A DNA stretch of 20,544 nucleotides, taken from the IMG/VR virus record IMGVR_UViG_2529293044_000023; one strand, given 5' to 3'. The position numbers were made by a program, and so were the translations under genes. The notes under the pieces are model-generated. The model made no database searches, was not told the origin of the DNA, and saw only the letters and a list, made by a program, of their open reading frames with translations. Positions within the stretch are counted from its first letter, which is position 1. Each line of letters starts with the position of its first letter. Source of the DNA: a virus (taxonomy: Duplodnaviria > Heunggongvirae > Uroviricota > Caudoviricetes). Positions 4,374 through 18,483 of this stretch are shown piece after piece.

Positions 4374-4476
4374 CGAAGTTACCTCTCTTCACCAAGTATT
4401 CGGTAATAAAATAACTTGTGGTGTTCTCGTTTTTATGCCGATAAAATAAACGGTCCACTTTCAAATGGAGCGATTC

Positions 4477-5397
4477 ATGATTTTTCTCAGAACTGAAAAC
4501 GGCATCGAGAAACTTGAAAACTGGGAGGAAATTATATCCAGACCAAACTTTGTCACCACTATAGACAAAGGAGTTCAACAACTTGAGGAGATAATTGGTT
4601 ACTACAAATTTAAAGAAGAAATCCACTGTGGTCTAACTGGTTGCAACCAACCACATCAAATGGGTTATATTGTAAAAACATCTAGTGGCATTGAAACCAA
4701 CATCGGAAATAAATGTGGTAAAAACGAATTTGGTGTGGAATTTGGTGAAAACGTTCTTAGTTTCAATAAATTTATGCAACTCGAAACCAATCGGGAAATT
4801 ATTAGCACCGCAAAAAGTAAATGTGAAGCGTGGCAAAAAAATATTGAAACGATACGAAATATCAAACCCACAATAGATTATCTATCTTCTACCATCGAAA
4901 ATAGTAAAAATTCCAATTACTCCGGAAGACTTGGTGCTACAGAAATTCGTTTTTTGACCAAGAACCAGACAGGCCTTGTAACCCTTTCTGAAGTGGAAAC
5001 TGATAAGAATACCAAAACAATTCTGTTCGCAATGAATGAACACATGCGCGAGTCTGGAGAGGCAATAAGTGAATTCTACATAGGAAAAGTATCATTTAGT
5101 CATGTTCTTTTACCAGAAAACAATCTTCGTGATTTTTTTGTTGCGCTCAAAGAAGATCTAAAAAAAATTCAGTGTATTGATCTACAAACAGCCCCAAGCC
5201 CAGAAATTTCTAATGTTGCCAAAATTGCCAGTTCAATCGAAGAACGAATCAAGCGATTAAAAAAACTGAAACATGAAGCCAGTAAATTCCTAACTAAAAA
5301 AAATCTGCGTCCCATCGCAAACAAAATAAAATACTCATCGACAGCGGATGAACTTGAATTCCATAATTTCGAACGCTTTTTAAAAGGGCTGAAATGA
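4477..5397 (+). CDS. Hypothetical protein, ~306 aa, AT-rich cargo gene of unknown function
   Basis: Long clean ORF on the strand opposite all flanking phage genes. Composition is visibly AT-rich against the phage backbone. GGAG 6 nt before the ATG at 4477 (the track's 4465 start has no RBS). Cys cluster HCGLTGC...KCGKN near the N-terminus and a charged coiled-coil-like C-terminus (IEERIKRLKKLKHEASK). No family recognised. Confidence 0.7.
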   Translation: MIFLRTENGIEKLENWEEIISRPNFVTTIDKGVQQLEEIIGYYKFKEEIHCGLTGCNQPHQMGYIVKTSSGIETNIGNKCGKNEFGVEFGENVLSFNKFMQLETNREIISTAKSKCEAWQKNIETIRNIKPTIDYLSSTIENSKNSNYSGRLGATEIRFLTKNQTGLVTLSEVETDKNTKTILFAMNEHMRESGEAISEFYIGKVSFSHVLLPENNLRDFFVALKEDLKKIQCIDLQTAPSPEISNVAKIASSIEERIKRLKKLKHEASKFLTKKNLRPIANKIKYSSTADELEFHNFERFLKGLK

Positions 5398-10556: not shown

Positions 10557-12818
<2,262 letters not shown>

Positions 12819-12821
12819 TCA

Positions 12822-13094
12822 TCATTCGTTTTTCATAACTGCCGCATTTGTGGCTGTGTGACTTCTACGTAACAAATCAGGGATTGCATCTTCAGGATGG
12901 GGATAAAGATCTGGTCTTAACCCATGAGGAGTAACTTTCCATTCCACAACTTCACATACACGCAAGACGAAACGAGCAGGAATTGTTCTTTTTGAAAACC
13001 ATTGGTTCACAGCTTGCGGCGTAACGCCTAGATTTCGCGCTATGGCATTTTGTGCAATTAGCTCACGAAGTGCGTCGTAATCATTTCCTTTCAT
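12822..13094 (-). CDS. Cro-like HTH transcriptional regulator (YdaS/Cro family)
   Basis: 90 aa with an HTH (NAIARNLGVTPQAVNQWFSKRTIP). Transcribed divergently from the cI-like repressor, 134 bp away, which is the Cro position. Confidence 0.7.
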   Translation of the reverse strand: MKGNDYDALRELIAQNAIARNLGVTPQAVNQWFSKRTIPARFVLRVCEVVEWKVTPHGLRPDLYPHPEDAIPDLLRRSHTATNAAVMKNE

Positions 13095-13228
13095 CGCAAC
13101 CCACCAATCTAAACTTTATAAATTCAAGATTACATCAAGTTTAAATTAACATGCAAGTCCACAAAAGATCGAATACACTAAAATCAAGTAAAAATTTATC
13201 GAAACCAAGTAACCAGCAAGGATTAACA
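13095..13228. promoter_or_regulatory. Divergent promoter/operator region between cro-like and cI-like genes (OR-like)
   Basis: AT-rich 134-bp intergenic region with repeated ATCAAGT-type motifs (13134-13140, 13183-13189, variant 13204-13210). Minus-strand TTATAA/TATAAA -10 candidate ~20 bp upstream of the cro start. Exact promoters not resolved. Confidence 0.45.
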
Positions 13229-13918
13229 ATGAAAAACTTAAAGAGCACTGAAAATCGAATTACAAAGCTGCTACAGGAGAAAGGCTGGAGCCAAGCAGAG
13301 CTGGCCCGAAAATTAGGTGTCAGCGCACAGTCCGTACAGTACTGGACAACAGGAAAAACATTTCCAAGGGGAAACCGGCTTGCCCAGTTATCCGAAATAA
13401 GTGGTTATCCGCAATCGTGGTTTTTAGGAGAAATCACGTCACGGCAGTTCTCTTCAAAGGAAAAACATCAAGCAAGAACTGACAGTGTGGTCTTTAACGT
13501 GCTCGATGTTGAGTTTAGTTGCGGCGATGGAACACATGTCCGTGGGGACTTTATCGATGTAGTTCGCTCAATCGAGCTTGATCCTGAATATGCCCGTCGC
13601 CTTGTTGGCAATAGAGCATTTCAAAACATAGAGATTGGTAACGCAAGAGGAGATAGTATGGCTCCAACAATAGCCCCAGGAGATCTTCTTTTTCTCGATA
13701 AAACAGTGAATTACTTTGATGGTGATGGCATTTATGCTTTTTGCTTTGATGGTGAATGCTACGTCAAAAGATTACAAAAGATAGGAAGTAAAATCATGGT
13801 GTTATCTGATAACCCAAATTACCAATCCTGGAGCATTGAAAAAGATGCTCTTGAGCTGCTTTATATCCAATCGAAGGTAATCTCATCTGTTCCATTCAAT
13901 ATAAATAGATTTGGTTAA
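13229..13918 (+). CDS. cI-like prophage repressor (N-terminal HTH_XRE, C-terminal LexA/S24 autopeptidase domain)
   Basis: HTH (WSQAELARKLGVSAQSVQYWTTGKTFP). S24 catalytic Ser in GDSMAPTI and Lys in ECYVKRL. AAGGA RBS 6 nt before the ATG at 13229; the track's 13151 start adds a low-complexity extension without an RBS and is rejected. Confidence 0.85.
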   Translation: MKNLKSTENRITKLLQEKGWSQAELARKLGVSAQSVQYWTTGKTFPRGNRLAQLSEISGYPQSWFLGEITSRQFSSKEKHQARTDSVVFNVLDVEFSCGDGTHVRGDFIDVVRSIELDPEYARRLVGNRAFQNIEIGNARGDSMAPTIAPGDLLFLDKTVNYFDGDGIYAFCFDGECYVKRLQKIGSKIMVLSDNPNYQSWSIEKDALELLYIQSKVISSVPFNINRFG

Positions 13919-13939
13919 TTATTGATTATTAAAGAAAAA

Positions 13940-14060
13940 TTTACAAATCAAGTAAAAGAGACGCAGAAATCAATTTTTTCTTGACAACTCCATCAATCAA
14001 GATCTAACATCACACCATCAATTTTGACTTGATTTATTGTTAATTTTAAATTGATGGTGA
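13940..14060 (+). promoter_or_regulatory. pL/OL-like early promoter-operator region driving the rightward early operon
   Basis: Two sigma70-like candidates: TTGACA (13981-13986) with TAACAT at 18-bp spacing, and TTGACT (14025-14030) with TAAATT (14047-14052) at 16-bp spacing. Operator-like motifs AAATCAAGTAAAA (13945-13957), ATCAAGA (13996-14002) and ACTTGAT (14027-14033) overlap them. Confidence 0.45.
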
Positions 14061-14064
14061 TTCA

Positions 14065-14493
14065 ATGAAAGATCTGACAACCGCTGAGATATCGAACTTA
14101 AACCACTTCGAAAAAGAATCCTTTGCATTAAATATTGCAAATCTGGTAGGTGCTGCTCGTACTTTCCATTTAATTGATGGTGATCGCTCTAAAGAATTGG
14201 GGTTTGAAGTCATGGAGTTTGTTCATGAATACGCCCTGTCTGCTACTTATCCATTACATAATCACATAATCAACAAACAACCAAATAAAATCCGCACCCA
14301 ACGCGAAGCCTGCGGCTTAACAACCGCCGAACTCGCCAGGCTGCTCGATCTCGATGAAGAAATTATCATCCAGTGGGAAAGCGGAGAGTACGAACCAACC
14401 ATCAGCATGCTTATCCCTCTGGCTAATGTTCTTGGCTGTGATCCAATGTTGTTATTGACTGATGCTTATAAACAAAATCAGGAGGAAGCATAA
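14065..14493 (+). CDS. HTH_XRE-domain protein (C-terminal Cro/C1-type HTH), first gene of the early operon
   Basis: 142 aa. C-terminal half IRTQREACGLTTAELARLLDLDEEIIIQWESGEYEPTISMLIPLANVLGCDP is a typical XRE HTH. N-terminal ~70 aa unrecognised. GGTGA RBS. Confidence 0.65.
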   Translation: MKDLTTAEISNLNHFEKESFALNIANLVGAARTFHLIDGDRSKELGFEVMEFVHEYALSATYPLHNHIINKQPNKIRTQREACGLTTAELARLLDLDEEIIIQWESGEYEPTISMLIPLANVLGCDPMLLLTDAYKQNQEEA

Positions 14494-14494
14494 G

Positions 14495-14686
14495 ATGAAA
14501 ATGTTCAAAGGCCTTACCAACGAACCGGAGACAGCTTTTCATCACATTGCCGTACTGCTTGAAGCGGGGTTAATCATTTCGGCTTCCGGTGATGAAGAAT
14601 GTGATGAACTTTCGGATGATATCTTTTTACTGGCACAACAATACGCCAAAAGCGCATGCGATGCATTTAAGGAGCAAAGAACATGA
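14495..14686 (+). CDS. Hypothetical small acidic protein (63 aa)
   Basis: ATG preceded by AGGAGG. The track start 14462 is an upstream alternative without an RBS. Confidence 0.5.
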   Translation: MKMFKGLTNEPETAFHHIAVLLEAGLIISASGDEECDELSDDIFLLAQQYAKSACDAFKEQRT

Positions 14687-14874
14687 TAACTCCATTAAAT
14701 ATTCTTGAGGAAGTGGCGGCACAAATAAAAGAGAATACATCAATGCTTGAATTTATATTTAAGAATTCGCCCGACCAAGGAGAGACAGACGATTATTTAT
14801 GCTGTCTCATTCGCTCCATGAATAAGACCTGTGAAATGGCTTACGAGTATATAGAAACACTACGCAACGAATAA
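14683..14874 (+). CDS. Hypothetical protein (63 aa)
   Basis: AAGGAG RBS; start overlaps the previous stop as ATGA, suggesting translational coupling. Confidence 0.5.
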   Translation: MITPLNILEEVAAQIKENTSMLEFIFKNSPDQGETDDYLCCLIRSMNKTCEMAYEYIETLRNE

Positions 14875-14956
14875 AGAACACTCAGTAAAAAATCACACAT
14901 AAAAACATGACGGCCTCTGGTCGTGGATTTCCACAACCAGAAAATAATGGTGATGC

Positions 14957-15055
14957 ATGAAAAATAGAAACGCTTATAAAACCGCATTATTAATGGCTAA
15001 TGCAGGATACTGGTCAGTTGCAATACTGTTTCTCAGAAAAGCATACGGGAAATAA
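14957..15055 (+). CDS. Possible small hydrophobic peptide (32 aa)
   Basis: MKNRNAYKTALLMANAGYWSVAILFLRKAYGK has one predicted TM-like segment. Weak RBS. Below the ORF-track size cutoff. Confidence 0.25.
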   Translation: MKNRNAYKTALLMANAGYWSVAILFLRKAYGK

Positions 15056-15058
15056 CAA

Positions 15059-15418
15059 ATGGCATGTACAACCATTTATAAAGATCGTCGCCGCATGGTA
15101 ACAGCGGCACTCCGGCGGATGCAACGTAAAACAGGTAGTAATCTGCTCGTCGTTGACCTCCCGGACGGAGAAATAACAACGATAGAAATAACTGAACAGT
15201 TCATGAACCAGTTGTTATTACGATTTGAGGGTCTTACCCGTGTTGAATATGGACGGACGGAAGGAGAAGCAACAATCCGTACCGCATACCAGAATGCCAT
15301 CGGTATTAATCAACACACGGAATATCTCACTGAATCAGGGAAACTGATAGTGGACGGCCTTTTAAAAGAGGTTGTTGACTACGTAAAAGAGAAATATATC
15401 AGTGGAGGAATTAACTGA
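15059..15418 (+). CDS. Hypothetical protein (119 aa)
   Basis: ATG-initiated ORF in the early operon; its stop overlaps the next start. Confidence 0.55.
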   Translation: MACTTIYKDRRRMVTAALRRMQRKTGSNLLVVDLPDGEITTIEITEQFMNQLLLRFEGLTRVEYGRTEGEATIRTAYQNAIGINQHTEYLTESGKLIVDGLLKEVVDYVKEKYISGGIN

Positions 15419-15627
15419 TGTCTGATTTATCCCCTCTTATACACGAAAAAGTACAGATCATTATGACGATTGAAAATGGTCAGGTAATAAATACCCGTAA
15501 AGTTCACAATAACGAGATGATTGCCAGCATGGATACCTTCTTGTGGATAGCAAAGAAAGCGGGATATCAGGTAATCGCTCCTGATCTGGAGGAAATCGGT
15601 GACATTAACAGCAATACGAATTCCTGA
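15418..15627 (+). CDS. Hypothetical protein (69 aa)
   Basis: GGAGG RBS; start overlaps the upstream stop (TGATG). Confidence 0.55.
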   Translation: MSDLSPLIHEKVQIIMTIENGQVINTRKVHNNEMIASMDTFLWIAKKAGYQVIAPDLEEIGDINSNTNS

Positions 15628-15850
15628 GTGGGTGCACCTGCAGGCGGTCCGTGTTCTCCGCCAGTTCAGAGCCAGACGAATTCATCCCTGTCGTATGCAC
15701 GGCTCCGGAAACCTGAGTCTGAGGGTTAATCGCCGCTGGCGGCTGCTGTCCCGAGACGGCGGCCAGAACTGGGAAGTAATGAGCCATGAACGATACAGCA
15801 AAGTTAAGGACCGGAAATGAACAATAAACCTTCAAACCAAAAGGAGAGTA

Positions 15851-16432
15851 TTGATGATTAATTCAACCATTACCCCTGAACCTACATTAACAGGCATCCG
15901 TTTTGGTAATCGAATTATTGGTTATTCAACTGCGGTTCGCCAGATCGACAACGGTAACTATGACAAACGAATTCCGGACGGGCTCGATCTGATAGCTTGC
16001 ATTATGGAAGGGATTGAAAGCGGCTGGTTTATGCCGTGTATTGAAAAACAAATCATCCTATGGCGCTGGCTTGTTGTCGCCGTGTTCATTGCTGAGGAGC
16101 AGGAGAAGAACGGGACTGTCGATGTTCAGAATGACAAGGGCGGCGTAGATACAGCCGTTGTATACACAGGAAAACCCGGTTCAATCAGCATTTATCCATG
16201 GTCTGAGCGCTTCGCGCTCGCTAACCATATCGAGGCGGGCGCAATTGAAAAATACGGGCCTGACGTTGGCCAGCAGATGGCGCTGCGTATGTATCAGGAC
16301 ATGGTTGTAACTGACGAGAAATGCGGATTCAGGCTGTCAGCGATGGGCCGGGAGGGACTCAACATACTACATGACAGCTTCATTGAACTGATTCAGAAAG
16401 ACGGTATGCCAGACATGCCGGTTATGCACTGA
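15851..16432 (+). CDS. Hypothetical protein (193 aa)
   Basis: AAGGAGAG RBS 7 nt upstream of the ATG. No domain recognised. Confidence 0.6.
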   Translation: MMINSTITPEPTLTGIRFGNRIIGYSTAVRQIDNGNYDKRIPDGLDLIACIMEGIESGWFMPCIEKQIILWRWLVVAVFIAEEQEKNGTVDVQNDKGGVDTAVVYTGKPGSISIYPWSERFALANHIEAGAIEKYGPDVGQQMALRMYQDMVVTDEKCGFRLSAMGREGLNILHDSFIELIQKDGMPDMPVMH

Positions 16433-16443
16433 GGTGGACGAAA

Positions 16444-17190
16444 ATGAACATAGTAACGATCAATAACAAACAGCTTCCGGCAGTCGAATATCGCGGTCAG
16501 CGTGTTGTGACGCTGGCGATGATTGATGAAGTCCACCAGCGACCGGAAGGAACAGCGCGTGCAGCATTCAACCGAAACCGTGAGCATTTCATCAGCGGTG
16601 TGGATTATGCCGAATTAGGTGCGGACGTAATACGTACGGACCTCCCGGAAGGAACATTCTCTAAATTTGCACCATCAGGGATTGTACTTTTTGAATCAGG
16701 TTACCTGATGTTGACGAAGCCATTCAATGACGCCCTTGCCTGGCAGGTTCAGCGCGAACTGGTTAACAGCTACTTCCGCACTCGCACACCGCTAACGGAA
16801 ATCGAGATGATCGCTGCGATAGCCGCCGACGCTGTTCGTCAACAGAAGCGCCTGAATCATGTGGAAGAACAGCTCGAAACAGTCACAGAAGCGGTGGAAA
16901 CCATCAAACGCGGAAATATGCGCGCCGGATATGTCGGTTATCGCCAGGTGGTCGCCAAAAGCGGAATGACTGATGCTAAGTGCCGCAATCTGGTCAATGC
17001 CTACAGCATCCCAACCGATACGCACGAATTTATGACACCAGATGGTCTTCTTTCGCGCCGGGCTATCGTGGAGCTGGAGCCATTCATGAAAGCATTTCAT
17101 CAGATGATGTCAGAGGCAGAGCCACGTGGTACCCGCTGGTATCACCCGAAGATGGGGCTGTTTCAGGTGATTGGTTGGGAGGGTAAATAA
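16444..17190 (+). CDS. Putative phage regulatory / antirepressor-like protein (KilA-N/ORF6N-like N-terminal domain)
   Basis: N-terminus LPAVEYRGQRVVTLAMIDEVHQRPEGTARAAFNRNREHFISGVDYAEL resembles ORF6N/KilA-N domains, judged from memory only. 248 aa. Confidence 0.5.
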   Translation: MNIVTINNKQLPAVEYRGQRVVTLAMIDEVHQRPEGTARAAFNRNREHFISGVDYAELGADVIRTDLPEGTFSKFAPSGIVLFESGYLMLTKPFNDALAWQVQRELVNSYFRTRTPLTEIEMIAAIAADAVRQQKRLNHVEEQLETVTEAVETIKRGNMRAGYVGYRQVVAKSGMTDAKCRNLVNAYSIPTDTHEFMTPDGLLSRRAIVELEPFMKAFHQMMSEAEPRGTRWYHPKMGLFQVIGWEGK

Positions 17191-17528
17191 TGTCACTCAT
17201 TACACAAAATTTCCGCCTCAATGCGCTGGCAAATCAGTATGCGGCGGCACTGCACAACCACATATCCGCCACCAGCGGTGGTCATTTCCTGATTAATGTC
17301 AATGGGCAATCCATACGAGTAAACATCATCGGTGGGGTTAAAGGCATCAGGGACTTAATCGATGGTTATGCTCTGAAGGCTATCAAAGAAAATTACCCCC
17401 AATGGGAAGCCGTTGGTATTCAACTGTTAAGCAAATGCGTTCGTGGAAACGAGCTGACGCAAAGCGGCAAAGAAATCTGGCAGAGCATGGTCAACGACAT
17501 GAGCGATACCGTTATGGGGAACATGTAA
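17190..17528 (+). CDS. Hypothetical protein (112 aa)
   Basis: Start overlaps the upstream stop (TAATG); ORF in operon context. Confidence 0.55.
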   Translation: MSLITQNFRLNALANQYAAALHNHISATSGGHFLINVNGQSIRVNIIGGVKGIRDLIDGYALKAIKENYPQWEAVGIQLLSKCVRGNELTQSGKEIWQSMVNDMSDTVMGNM

Positions 17529-17750
17529 ATGAAAATCCAATACCAGGACTATGGCGCCGTAGCGAACATCGTGATCACCAGTTCCTGCCTGACATTGCAA
17601 AAGCATAACCGCGTTGTTGATGCGGTGCTGTTTAATGTACAGGGGATCTCTGAAAACCGCAGCGGCTTTTTCTGGGTTAAGTCATCGTTGTCAGGAAAAA
17701 CACGCGACATCCTGCGCGCCTACAAAATCGTACAGCGGGAGGCAAAGTGA
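17529..17750 (+). CDS. Hypothetical protein (73 aa)
   Basis: Starts one nt after the upstream stop; ORF in operon context. Confidence 0.5.
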   Translation: MKIQYQDYGAVANIVITSSCLTLQKHNRVVDAVLFNVQGISENRSGFFWVKSSLSGKTRDILRAYKIVQREAK

Positions 17751-17845
17751 TGAAGTCATTCCTCCTGTCCATACTGTTTAGTCTGCTGCTGGCGTCCGTC
17801 GTTTTCGGTACGCTGATTGAATATAAATTTTTAATGAATTACTGA
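17750..17845 (+). CDS. Possible small membrane peptide (31 aa)
   Basis: MKSFLLSILFSLLLASVVFGTLIEYKFLMNY is a single hydrophobic helix. ATG overlaps the upstream stop (GTGATGA). Below the ORF-track cutoff. Confidence 0.3.
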   Translation: MKSFLLSILFSLLLASVVFGTLIEYKFLMNY

Positions 17846-17853
17846 GGTGCGGG

Positions 17854-18009
17854 GTGGGCAAGATCAAAAACCCAGTTGTACTTATCCATAAGCGAGAAAA
17901 TAGTGACTCCTACGCCGTTACAATCACCTGCGGTAGCCAGAACTATCACGACGCCGTTCTGATGGCGTCGATGGAACTGGATATGAGTGACGATGATGTC
18001 GATACCTAG
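17854..18009 (+). CDS. Possible small protein (51 aa, GTG start)
   Basis: GAGG 6 nt upstream of GTG. Product VGKIKNPVVLIHKRENSDSYAVTITCGSQNYHDAVLMASMELDMSDDDVDT has protein-like composition. Fills an otherwise empty 180-bp gap. Confidence 0.3.
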   Translation: MGKIKNPVVLIHKRENSDSYAVTITCGSQNYHDAVLMASMELDMSDDDVDT

Positions 18010-18027
18010 AGTAAAACAGGCTATTAC

Positions 18028-18483
18028 ATGGCTGAAGAAATCGAGCGACTGAAACAAGCACTTTCCGCTGCGGAAAATAATCTGATTGATTCCGAATGCC
18101 TCGTAGCTGAATTAAGCAAAGCAAAGGATCACGCATATGGGCTGGTCGACACATACGACTGGCAACGTCAGCGTCTCCACGCAGCCGCTGAGAAAGTCCT
18201 CAAATGGTGCAGACAAGAAGCTGAACACCGTACCGGCGATCCAGAGAAAGCAGAAAACTATGCGTGCGTTAAAGAACTACGCGACGCATTAACTTTTTGC
18301 AAAAGTTCTGAAAGCAGCAAGAAGAAAGGCCTGACTATCACCCTGCCCGATATCACATCAAAGGCATTCTGGAGCGGTACCGGAAAAAACGCAAAATTCC
18401 ATCCGGCAACCTATAAACGCTGGGTGAAAGAAGCTATTAAACGGGATTGTGTTATTGCCGGGATCGGCGTGGAGGTGAAATGA
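18028..18483 (+). CDS. Hypothetical early protein (151 aa)
   Basis: ATG-initiated ORF with a coiled-coil-like N-terminus. No family recognised. Confidence 0.55.
   Translation: MAEEIERLKQALSAAENNLIDSECLVAELSKAKDHAYGLVDTYDWQRQRLHAAAEKVLKWCRQEAEHRTGDPEKAENYACVKELRDALTFCKSSESSKKKGLTITLPDITSKAFWSGTGKNAKFHPATYKRWVKEAIKRDCVIAGIGVEVK

Follow-up and report, generated by a model that had tools for sequence, protein, structure and literature searches.

A block of eight small genes at positions 15059 to 17845 was analyzed in a stretch of DNA of 20,544 nucleotides (nt) from a virus of the Caudoviricetes (IMG/VR record IMGVR_UViG_2529293044_000023), the whole of which is called the window here. We consider it moderately probable that this block is a segment of a cI-repressed early-left operon of the type carried by the phage phi467, composed of eight accessory cassettes of which one encodes a regulator with an ORF6N domain and another a ParE-like effector. 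A first-pass annotation of the window had described the block as six uncharacterized open reading frames (ORFs), including an antirepressor-like protein, in a region suited to host-takeover and anti-defense genes; its observations proved largely right, if incomplete, and its interpretation reasonable, if generic. As a mosaic accessory segment, the region is typical of the early-left part of lambdoid prophages, the kind of place in which temperate phages keep host-directed and conflict genes. It leaves current understanding unchallenged, and its sequence and family assignments were already public. What is gained is mostly annotation: eight genes instead of six, a toxin-like gene that is left unannotated in both the closest RefSeq genome and phi467, a miscalled RefSeq start for the gene of a 192-amino-acid (192-aa) protein, and an "antirepressor" that is a shuffled protein of two modules. 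The leads are a ParE-like gene without a canonical antitoxin, together with its 119-aa companion, and an orphan-fold 192-aa protein paired with an antirepressor-like C-terminal module.

The eight genes are as follows (pI, isoelectric point; E, expectation value).

15059-15418, plus strand: 119-aa protein, phrog_1737 (PHROG E, 1e-51)
15418-15627, plus strand: 69-aa acidic protein, phrog_340 (pI 4.8)
15599-15820, plus strand: 73-aa ParE_like (PF24732) protein, GTG start (Pfam E, 9.9e-20)
15854-16432, plus strand: 192-aa acidic protein, phrog_1515 (precomputed PF17345 match in few homologues)
16444-17190, plus strand: 248-aa protein, phrog_1726 "anti-repressor" (ORF6N at about 16483-16719, C-terminal module at about 16777-17187)
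17190-17528, plus strand: 112-aa protein, phrog_37628 (PHROG E, 5.5e-63; start overlaps the stop of the preceding gene)
17529-17750, plus strand: 73-aa basic protein, phrog_1001 (PHROG E, 4.3e-33)
17750-17845, plus strand: 31-aa hydrophobic peptide with a single transmembrane segment (ATG overlaps the stop of the 73-aa gene at 17529-17750)

All six of the ORFs listed in the first-pass annotation were found to be genes, at the places and on the strand where it had put them. Each matched a PHROG family (E, 1e-24 to 1e-89) and was preceded by a Shine-Dalgarno-like sequence, and the ratios of nonsynonymous to synonymous polymorphism (pN/pS) measured against homologous alleles in the fetched loci were 0.16 to 0.40, which indicates purifying selection. 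By gene, pN/pS was 0.40 for the 119-aa protein, 0.20 for the ParE-like protein (95 alleles), 0.16 for the 248-aa protein, 0.21 for the 112-aa protein, and 0.39 for the 73-aa phrog_1001 protein (43 alleles). The seven junctions between the eight genes measured, in order, -1, -29, +33, +11, -1, 0, and -1 nt. Because of the PHROG matches, the pN/pS values, the Shine-Dalgarno-like sequences, and junctions that range from -29 to +33 nt, the genes of the block appear to be real and translationally coupled. The 193-aa ORF as listed almost certainly starts instead at the ATG at 15854, giving 192 aa, since its homologues are all 192 to 193 aa long.

The overlapping stop and start codons that had been described were present at three of the five junctions between the listed ORFs (-1, -1, and 0 nt), and the other two were an 11-nt gap and an apparent gap of 223 nt (15628-15850). 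The latter is occupied by the ParE-like gene, which had been missed; it overlaps the 69-aa ORF by 29 nt and has a GGAGG 6 nt upstream of its GTG. Nor does the block end at 17750, where it had been closed, since the conserved 31-aa gene continues to 17845. Its peptide, MKSFLLSILFSLLLASVVFGTLIEYKFLMNY, has a grand average of hydropathy of 1.38 and is conserved across loci with many protein-level variants, with ...GALIEYKFL... kept; the gene is annotated in phi467 and is missing from RefSeq genome annotations.

A search of the block in NCBIfam, PADLOC, and Rfam returned no family match, and PADLOC gave for the block proteins only a chance-level match to Csx20 (E, 0.038). The earlier view that the five listed ORFs other than the 248-aa one lack a recognizable domain was borne out for the 119-, 69-, 192-, 112-, and 73-aa proteins in Pfam, NCBIfam, and PADLOC. 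Matches to phage proteins of recombination or housekeeping, which would have contradicted the first-pass annotation, were obtained for none of the ORFs in PHROGs, Pfam, NCBIfam, or PADLOC.

Position of the block in an early-left region

The block lies in an Escherichia coli lambdoid prophage. The chromosome of E. coli F719 matches positions 12741-18966 at 99.9% identity, a few further E. coli strains match them at 96 to 99%, and the sequenced phage phi467 carries the same block genes nearly unchanged, with cI, a helix-turn-helix (HTH) gene, the block, xis, and int on one strand. The early-left location proposed in the first-pass annotation therefore held: the block is downstream of cI and a promoter/operator region, is upstream of xis and int, and lies on the same strand as these genes. 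The neighboring features on the cI side are given below (OL and PL, leftward operator and promoter).

12822-13094, minus strand: cro-like gene
13229-13918, plus strand: cI repressor gene, LexA/S24-type, probable start at 13229
13965-14055, plus strand: putative OL/PL control region between cI and the HTH gene, with promoter-like sites and operator-like repeats
14065-14493, plus strand: HTH protein gene, followed by two small ORFs and then the block

On the 3' side of the block, the plus strand carries a DUF4222 gene, xis, and a split integrase, and the opposite flank of the prophage carries helicase, toprim primase, and Q antiterminator genes. The start of cI is probably the ATG at 13229, which matches RefSeq (229 to 230 aa), because an operator-like copy falls within the N-terminal extension of the 255-aa cI ORF listed by the ORF program.

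A consensus scan of the putative control region found a promoter-like site, TTGACA-18-TAACAT, at 13981-14010 and a second at 14024-14052. Exact copies of ATCAATTTTnnCTTGA are present at 13969 and 14017 and a degenerate copy at 14039, and relatives of this repeat occur between cro and cI, at 13134 and 13184. The repeat was matched 13 times overall, versus 3.4 expected by shuffling. These operator-like repeats, ATCAATTTTnnCTTGA and its variants, span two regions, 13134-13199 and 13969-14054. In the same scan no promoter-like site was found on the plus strand between 14053 and 19300. Since a promoter-like site and operator-like repeats are located near cI and no promoter-like site lies within 14053-19300, the architecture suggests that the block is a segment of a repressor-controlled early-left (PL-type) operon. 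Gene order and these putative sites would thus place it as expected of a lambdoid early-left region, that is, between cI with OL/PL and xis-int, co-oriented, and with a promoter and operators. Under this arrangement the block would most likely be silent in the lysogen and its genes would be expressed jointly, early after induction or infection.

In position, the block resembles the early-left regions of lambda (ea/ral/kil), P22 (ea), Fels-1, and phi467, and like them it consists of small, tightly packed, co-oriented, mosaic genes, with partial synteny to Fels-1 and Fraca. Unlike in these regions, homologues of exo/bet/gam, erf, recET, kil, cIII, and N were not detected at the block, and a characterized homologue was found for none of its genes.

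Mosaic assortment was examined in 80 close loci (IMG/VR), 70 diverse loci (GTDB genomes), and individual phages. The 119-aa, 69-aa, and ParE-like genes occurred in all combinations with variable downstream genes (the 192-aa gene or the alternative families c1 and c9), and such combinations were seen in Fels-1, Fraca, Fostie, ENT39118, Klebsiella phages, and Shiga toxin (Stx) phages. The conservation and synteny analysis that had been proposed for the block thus revealed purifying selection on genes that assort independently across relatives, and the distribution suggests that the block genes are independently exchangeable cassettes, with the exception of a linkage between the 119-aa and ParE-like genes that is considered below. 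Any DNA match to the block was found in 100 of 5,426 complete E. coli genomes, and at least 80% of the block in 8 of them; the individual gene families are widespread in Enterobacterales prophages.

The ORF6N protein and its C-terminal module

The first-pass annotation had suggested a KilA-N- or ORF6N-like N terminus for the 248-aa protein. The ORF6N half of this suggestion was confirmed: ORF6N (PF10543) matched residues 14 to 92 at 46.2 bits against a cutoff of 27.8 (E, 5.9e-12), and RefSeq names identical 248-aa proteins "ORF6N domain-containing protein." KilA-N was not matched; in Pfam at E <= 0.1, ORF6N was the only hit, and KilA-N (PF04383), Bro-N, ANT/KilAC (PF03374), AntA, and P22_AR were not found. 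The whole protein matched phrog_1726, "anti-repressor" (E, 8.8e-70).

A tblastn comparison with phages demonstrated that residues 112 to 248 form a separate C-terminal module, which is 70 to 82% identical to the C-terminal halves of proteins from Stx phages, Klebsiella phages, and the P1-like phage D6. In those proteins the N-terminal domain is Phage_pRha and not ORF6N. The D6 homologue (the D6 "Ant"), which is 71% identical in its C-terminal half, directly follows icd, a position held in P1 by the antirepressor gene (icd-ant). Domain shuffling is reportedly typical of the Bro, KilA, Rha, and "antirepressor" DNA-binding proteins of phages (ORF6N, PF10543; Phage_pRha, PF09669), and the 248-aa protein shares it. 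From these relationships it is probably an antirepressor-like or Rha-like regulator, a putative DNA-binding protein of the modular ORF6N/Rha/"antirepressor" class, in which the N-terminal ORF6N domain would bind DNA and the C-terminal effector module would be swapped between ORF6N and pRha N-terminal domains. The earlier description "antirepressor-like" is supported only at the level of domains and family labels, through the ORF6N domain, the PHROG 1726 label, and a C-terminal module that also occurs in the D6 protein at the icd-ant position; unlike proven antirepressors, however, the protein lacks an ANT/KilAC domain.

A Roi-like C-terminal half was considered and ruled out, since HK97 Roi proved dissimilar to it; the "similar to Roi" remark attached to the D6 protein must refer to its pRha N-terminal domain. 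The C-terminal segment GTRWYHPKMGL (17128-17157) resembles the GGTWLHPKLAV core of the HK97 KilA-N protein over 11 residues (BLASTP E, 0.12), the only similarity to that protein; this may hint that the shuffled module is a divergent KilA-N-like element. A literature search returned no functional studies on ORF6N.

The ParE-like protein and its possible partners

The gene in the former gap encodes a 73-aa protein that matched the Pfam family ParE_like (PF24732) at 70.8 bits against a cutoff of 24.4 (E, 9.9e-20). Its close homologues are 72 to 73 aa long, have the same N terminus, and all carry PF24732, and RefSeq labels the protein "ParE family toxin-like protein" in some strains. The family is small: an exhaustive HMMER search of 1.84 billion representatives returned only 113 clusters, nearly all 60 to 90 aa long. 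An AlphaFold2 model built from an alignment of 33 homologues was confident, with a predicted local distance difference test score of 88.9 and the topology beta-alpha-beta-beta-beta-alpha. When this model was compared with the Protein Data Bank (PDB) by Foldseek, the top 30 matches were almost all toxins of the RelE superfamily (YoeB, YoeB/ParE, YafQ, RelK, GraT, and HigB), with modest scores (template modeling score [TM] about 0.5, probability up to 0.93, and E about 0.1). The remote-homology and structure searches that had been recommended for the block thus confirmed an ORF6N domain and produced a RelE-like model for the ParE-like protein, and they left the 192-aa protein without a known fold. 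PDB searches with the ParE-like, 69-aa, and 248-aa sequences and with ParE-like, 192-aa, and 119-aa profiles gave chance matches only.

The protein is extremely basic (pI 11.9). Across 46 of the 113 clusters, R48 is invariant, with H63 and Y66 nearly invariant, a pattern that fits an active-site-like constellation. In weak hhalign alignments R48 aligns with R65 of YoeB and R61 of RelE; the alignments, made with E. coli YoeB and RelE and RK2 ParE, were taken only as a hint regarding R48. Residues 50 to 59, LSRDGGQNWE (15746-15775), form an Asp-box (SxDxGxxW) beta-hairpin, which gives rise to spurious matches to BNR and Ycf48 in Pfam and the PDB. The protein resembles the type II toxins of the RelE/ParE group (YoeB, YafQ, RelE, HigB, GraT, and ParE) in its match to the ParE_like family, in a predicted fold for which these toxins are the best, if modest, structural matches, and in its small size, basicity, and conserved Arg, His, and Tyr near the C terminus. 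Unlike the solved members of that group, it has only 73 aa, one N-terminal helix, and no sequence-detectable relationship to them; unlike type II pairs, its family has no conserved cognate antitoxin; and unlike autoregulated two-gene toxin cassettes, its gene lies inside a putatively repressed phage early operon. A literature search returned no functional studies on PF24732 or "ParE family toxin-like" proteins.

We asked which genes accompany ParE_like. In the subfamily to which the protein belongs (at least 49% identity), the 119-aa gene was upstream in 36 of the 38 GTDB loci, which span Escherichia, Citrobacter, Enterobacter, Kosakonia, Pantoea, Erwinia, and Yersinia. It was present in none of the 32 distant ParE_like loci, where the upstream gene was instead a DUF2857 gene (in loci resembling integrative and conjugative elements [ICEs]), a ParB-like gene, or an Rv2179c-like exonuclease gene. 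The distant subfamilies (loci L135-L159 and L142-L151) have conserved, non-lambdoid surroundings: in one, the ParE_like gene is flanked by a DUF2857 gene and by a gene for about 420 aa (an ICE-like setting), and in the other by genes for an Rv2179c-like 3'-5' exoribonuclease and for an 885-aa protein resembling a primase/helicase. Overall, ParE_like genes were found in lambdoid and HK97-like phages, the lytic Murrayvirus, phage-plasmids, and ICE-like DUF2857 loci, and no neighbor was universal among the 70 diverse loci. Since the junction between the 119-aa and ParE-like genes itself gains and loses cassettes, the linkage of these two genes, as judged from gene order, is tighter than simple synteny predicts. 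In Fels-1 and Fostie the 119-aa gene is present but the ParE-like gene is not. The 119-aa product has an invariant RKTG motif and no Pfam, NCBIfam, PADLOC, or PDB match, and a Pfam scan of all 21 members of its family at E <= 1 gave nothing consistent.

The 69-aa gene was present in about 60 of the 80 close loci and was missing from Fraca and ENT39118; Stx phages and Fels-1 have it but lack the ParE-like gene. Because either gene occurs without the other, the 69-aa protein was ruled out as an obligate antitoxin; it is an optional cassette whose product weakly resembles the C-terminal portions of "anti-repressor" PHROGs. A downstream antitoxin of the HigA type was likewise excluded, because the genes downstream of the ParE-like gene differ between loci; they are not homologous to one another, and none has an HTH domain.

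Homologues of ParE_like also appear in records assigned to nonenterobacterial hosts: Elizabethkingia phage EKP1 (89% identity), Chryseobacterium sp. (L114; 73%), Vagococcus sp. (L147; 36%), and a Cereibacter metagenome-assembled genome (L134; 45%). EKP1 and L114 carry 119-aa homologues, as enterobacterial prophages do, and EKP1 also has homologues of the 192-aa (50%) and 248-aa (93%) proteins. At least these two records are probably the result of contamination or host misassignment.

The explanation of the ParE-like protein that we favor is that it acts as a solo early lytic effector directed at the host, for example, a toxin that targets ribosomes or mRNA. Since the operon is presumably repressed in lysogens, no dedicated antitoxin would be needed, and it is for this reason that a solo effector is preferred; we hold this view tentatively, as plausible rather than probable. 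In this subfamily the 119-aa protein may modulate the ParE-like protein. Several results weigh against the favored account of the protein and of the block as a whole. The fold matches of the model are weak (Foldseek E about 0.1, TM about 0.5), the sequence and profile searches of the PDB detected no toxin, and hhalign comparisons of the ParE-like profile with YoeB, RelE, and ParE gave probabilities under 6%. A toxin-antitoxin (TA) module would also account for the linkage in 36 of 38 loci and for the acidity (pI 4.8) of the 69-aa protein encoded upstream. A regulator or antirepressor role for the 248-aa protein is suggested by names and domain homology and has to be reconciled with the missing ANT/KilAC domain, PL-driven expression is predicted from a crude promoter-consensus scan, and six of the eight block genes have no functional evidence of any kind.

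An alternative that we regard as rather unlikely is that ParE_like proteins are nontoxic RNA-, ribosome-, or DNA-binding factors of mobile elements, acting as regulators of early expression or replication, in which the RelE-like fold has been retained. The presence of this small family (113 representative clusters) in conserved early or replication neighborhoods of very different elements, without a constant partner, is what such a role would predict, as is a minimal protein of 65 to 85 aa that is one N-terminal helix short of the classical toxins. The conserved Arg...His..Tyr and the extreme basicity, on the other hand, resemble those of active RelE/YoeB-type nucleases, and Pfam curators grouped PF24732 with ParE toxins.

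Unlikely to a similar or slightly greater degree is a two- or three-component TA module composed of the 119-aa protein, the optional 69-aa protein, and the ParE-like protein, in which the 119-aa or 69-aa protein would neutralize the toxin and the module would serve prophage stabilization or abortive-infection defense. The layout would be analogous to that of the three-component PaaR-PaaA-ParE systems reportedly found in prophages of E. coli O157:H7, since the block is also prophage borne and contains three consecutive small genes that end in a gene resembling the ParE family. An acidic protein (pI 4.8) is followed by a basic one (pI 11.9) with a 29-nt overlap. The 119-aa gene is retained upstream across many genera while the downstream gene varies, and its occurrence alone in Fels-1 and Fostie, set beside only 2 of 38 loci in which the ParE-like gene lacks it, is an asymmetry of the antitoxin type. 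However, the 69-aa gene is dispensable, being absent from about a quarter of the close loci and from Fraca and ENT39118, and the 119-aa gene is missing from all 32 distant ParE_like loci. Unlike PaaR-PaaA-ParE, the putative module lacks an HTH regulator. Neither the 119-aa nor the 69-aa protein has an antitoxin, ribbon-helix-helix, or HTH domain in Pfam or a detectable relative in the PDB, which includes PaaA2 and ParE2. PADLOC found no such system, and there is no promoter-like site upstream of the 119-aa gene.

A further reading, which we also consider unlikely, is that PF24732 comprises a distinct class of minimal RelE-fold effectors without a canonical antitoxin that are carried in the early operons of phages and ICEs. 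On this reading such effectors would either stop the translation of the host as lytic or transfer development begins or be restrained by a new kind of partner, of which the 119-aa protein would be an example.

That the block encodes anti-defense proteins (inhibitors of restriction, retrons, cyclic-oligonucleotide-based antiphage signaling systems, or TA-based immunity), as in the hypervariable early regions of temperate phages, seems quite improbable: the mosaic early region with single-gene cassettes under purifying selection, the acidic 192-aa protein without a known fold, and the Lar-like restriction alleviation gene in the same region of the related phage Fostie are compatible with it, but no similarity to named defense or anti-defense proteins was found in PHROGs, Pfam, NCBIfam, or PADLOC, a weak test without an anti-defense library. 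The idea of host takeover or anti-defense in the first-pass annotation was thus a generic one, in that PADLOC reported nothing and no result pointed toward anti-defense; as an effector directed at the host there is a single concrete candidate, the overlooked gene with a predicted ParE/RelE fold.

Other block proteins and the state of the prophage

No recognizable fold was found for the 192-aa protein, the gene of which usually adjoins an antirepressor-like gene. In related phages its position upstream of the antirepressor-like gene is taken by an apparently unrelated family of 167- to 168-aa proteins (L008, 3219-3725; L164, 3833-4336), and both families share a C-terminal tail that ends in ...P(V/I)(M/V/L)H (16390-16432 in the 192-aa gene). 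Homology between the two families was not accepted, the C-terminal hhalign match being weak (E, 0.027; probability, 1.8%). Informative homologues of the 119-, 69-, 112-, and 73-aa (phrog_1001) proteins and of the 31-aa peptide were not found in PHROGs, Pfam, NCBIfam, or PADLOC. The 73-aa phrog_1001 gene is a widely assorting single-gene cassette, which in many relatives directly follows the ParE-like gene.

The prophage itself is probably damaged, because an insertion sequence of the IS21 family is present here and missing from the otherwise collinear F719 and phi467.

10873-12674, plus strand: IS21-type insertion with istA (rve and HTH domains) and istB (IstB_IS21 domain)

This element separates the phage replication genes from cro. 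The equivalent of a 209-aa phi467 gene (17854-18483, plus strand) is broken by an in-frame TAG at 18007-18009 (TGG to TAG), which leaves ORFs of 51 and 151 aa, and RefSeq calls the equivalent gene a pseudogene in related strains. The integrase is present as two plus-strand ORFs, one with the Arm-DNA-binding domain (19259-19639) and one with the catalytic domain (19672-20544). The integrase gene of strain Ch1 is likewise annotated as "frameshifted," and the split is an additional sign of a decaying prophage. Elsewhere in the window, adjoining the Q antiterminator gene, a 310-aa ORF (4465-5397, plus strand) without a Pfam match occupies an AT-rich island with a GC content of about 0.36, compared to about 0.50 around it, and is a candidate moron or cargo gene.

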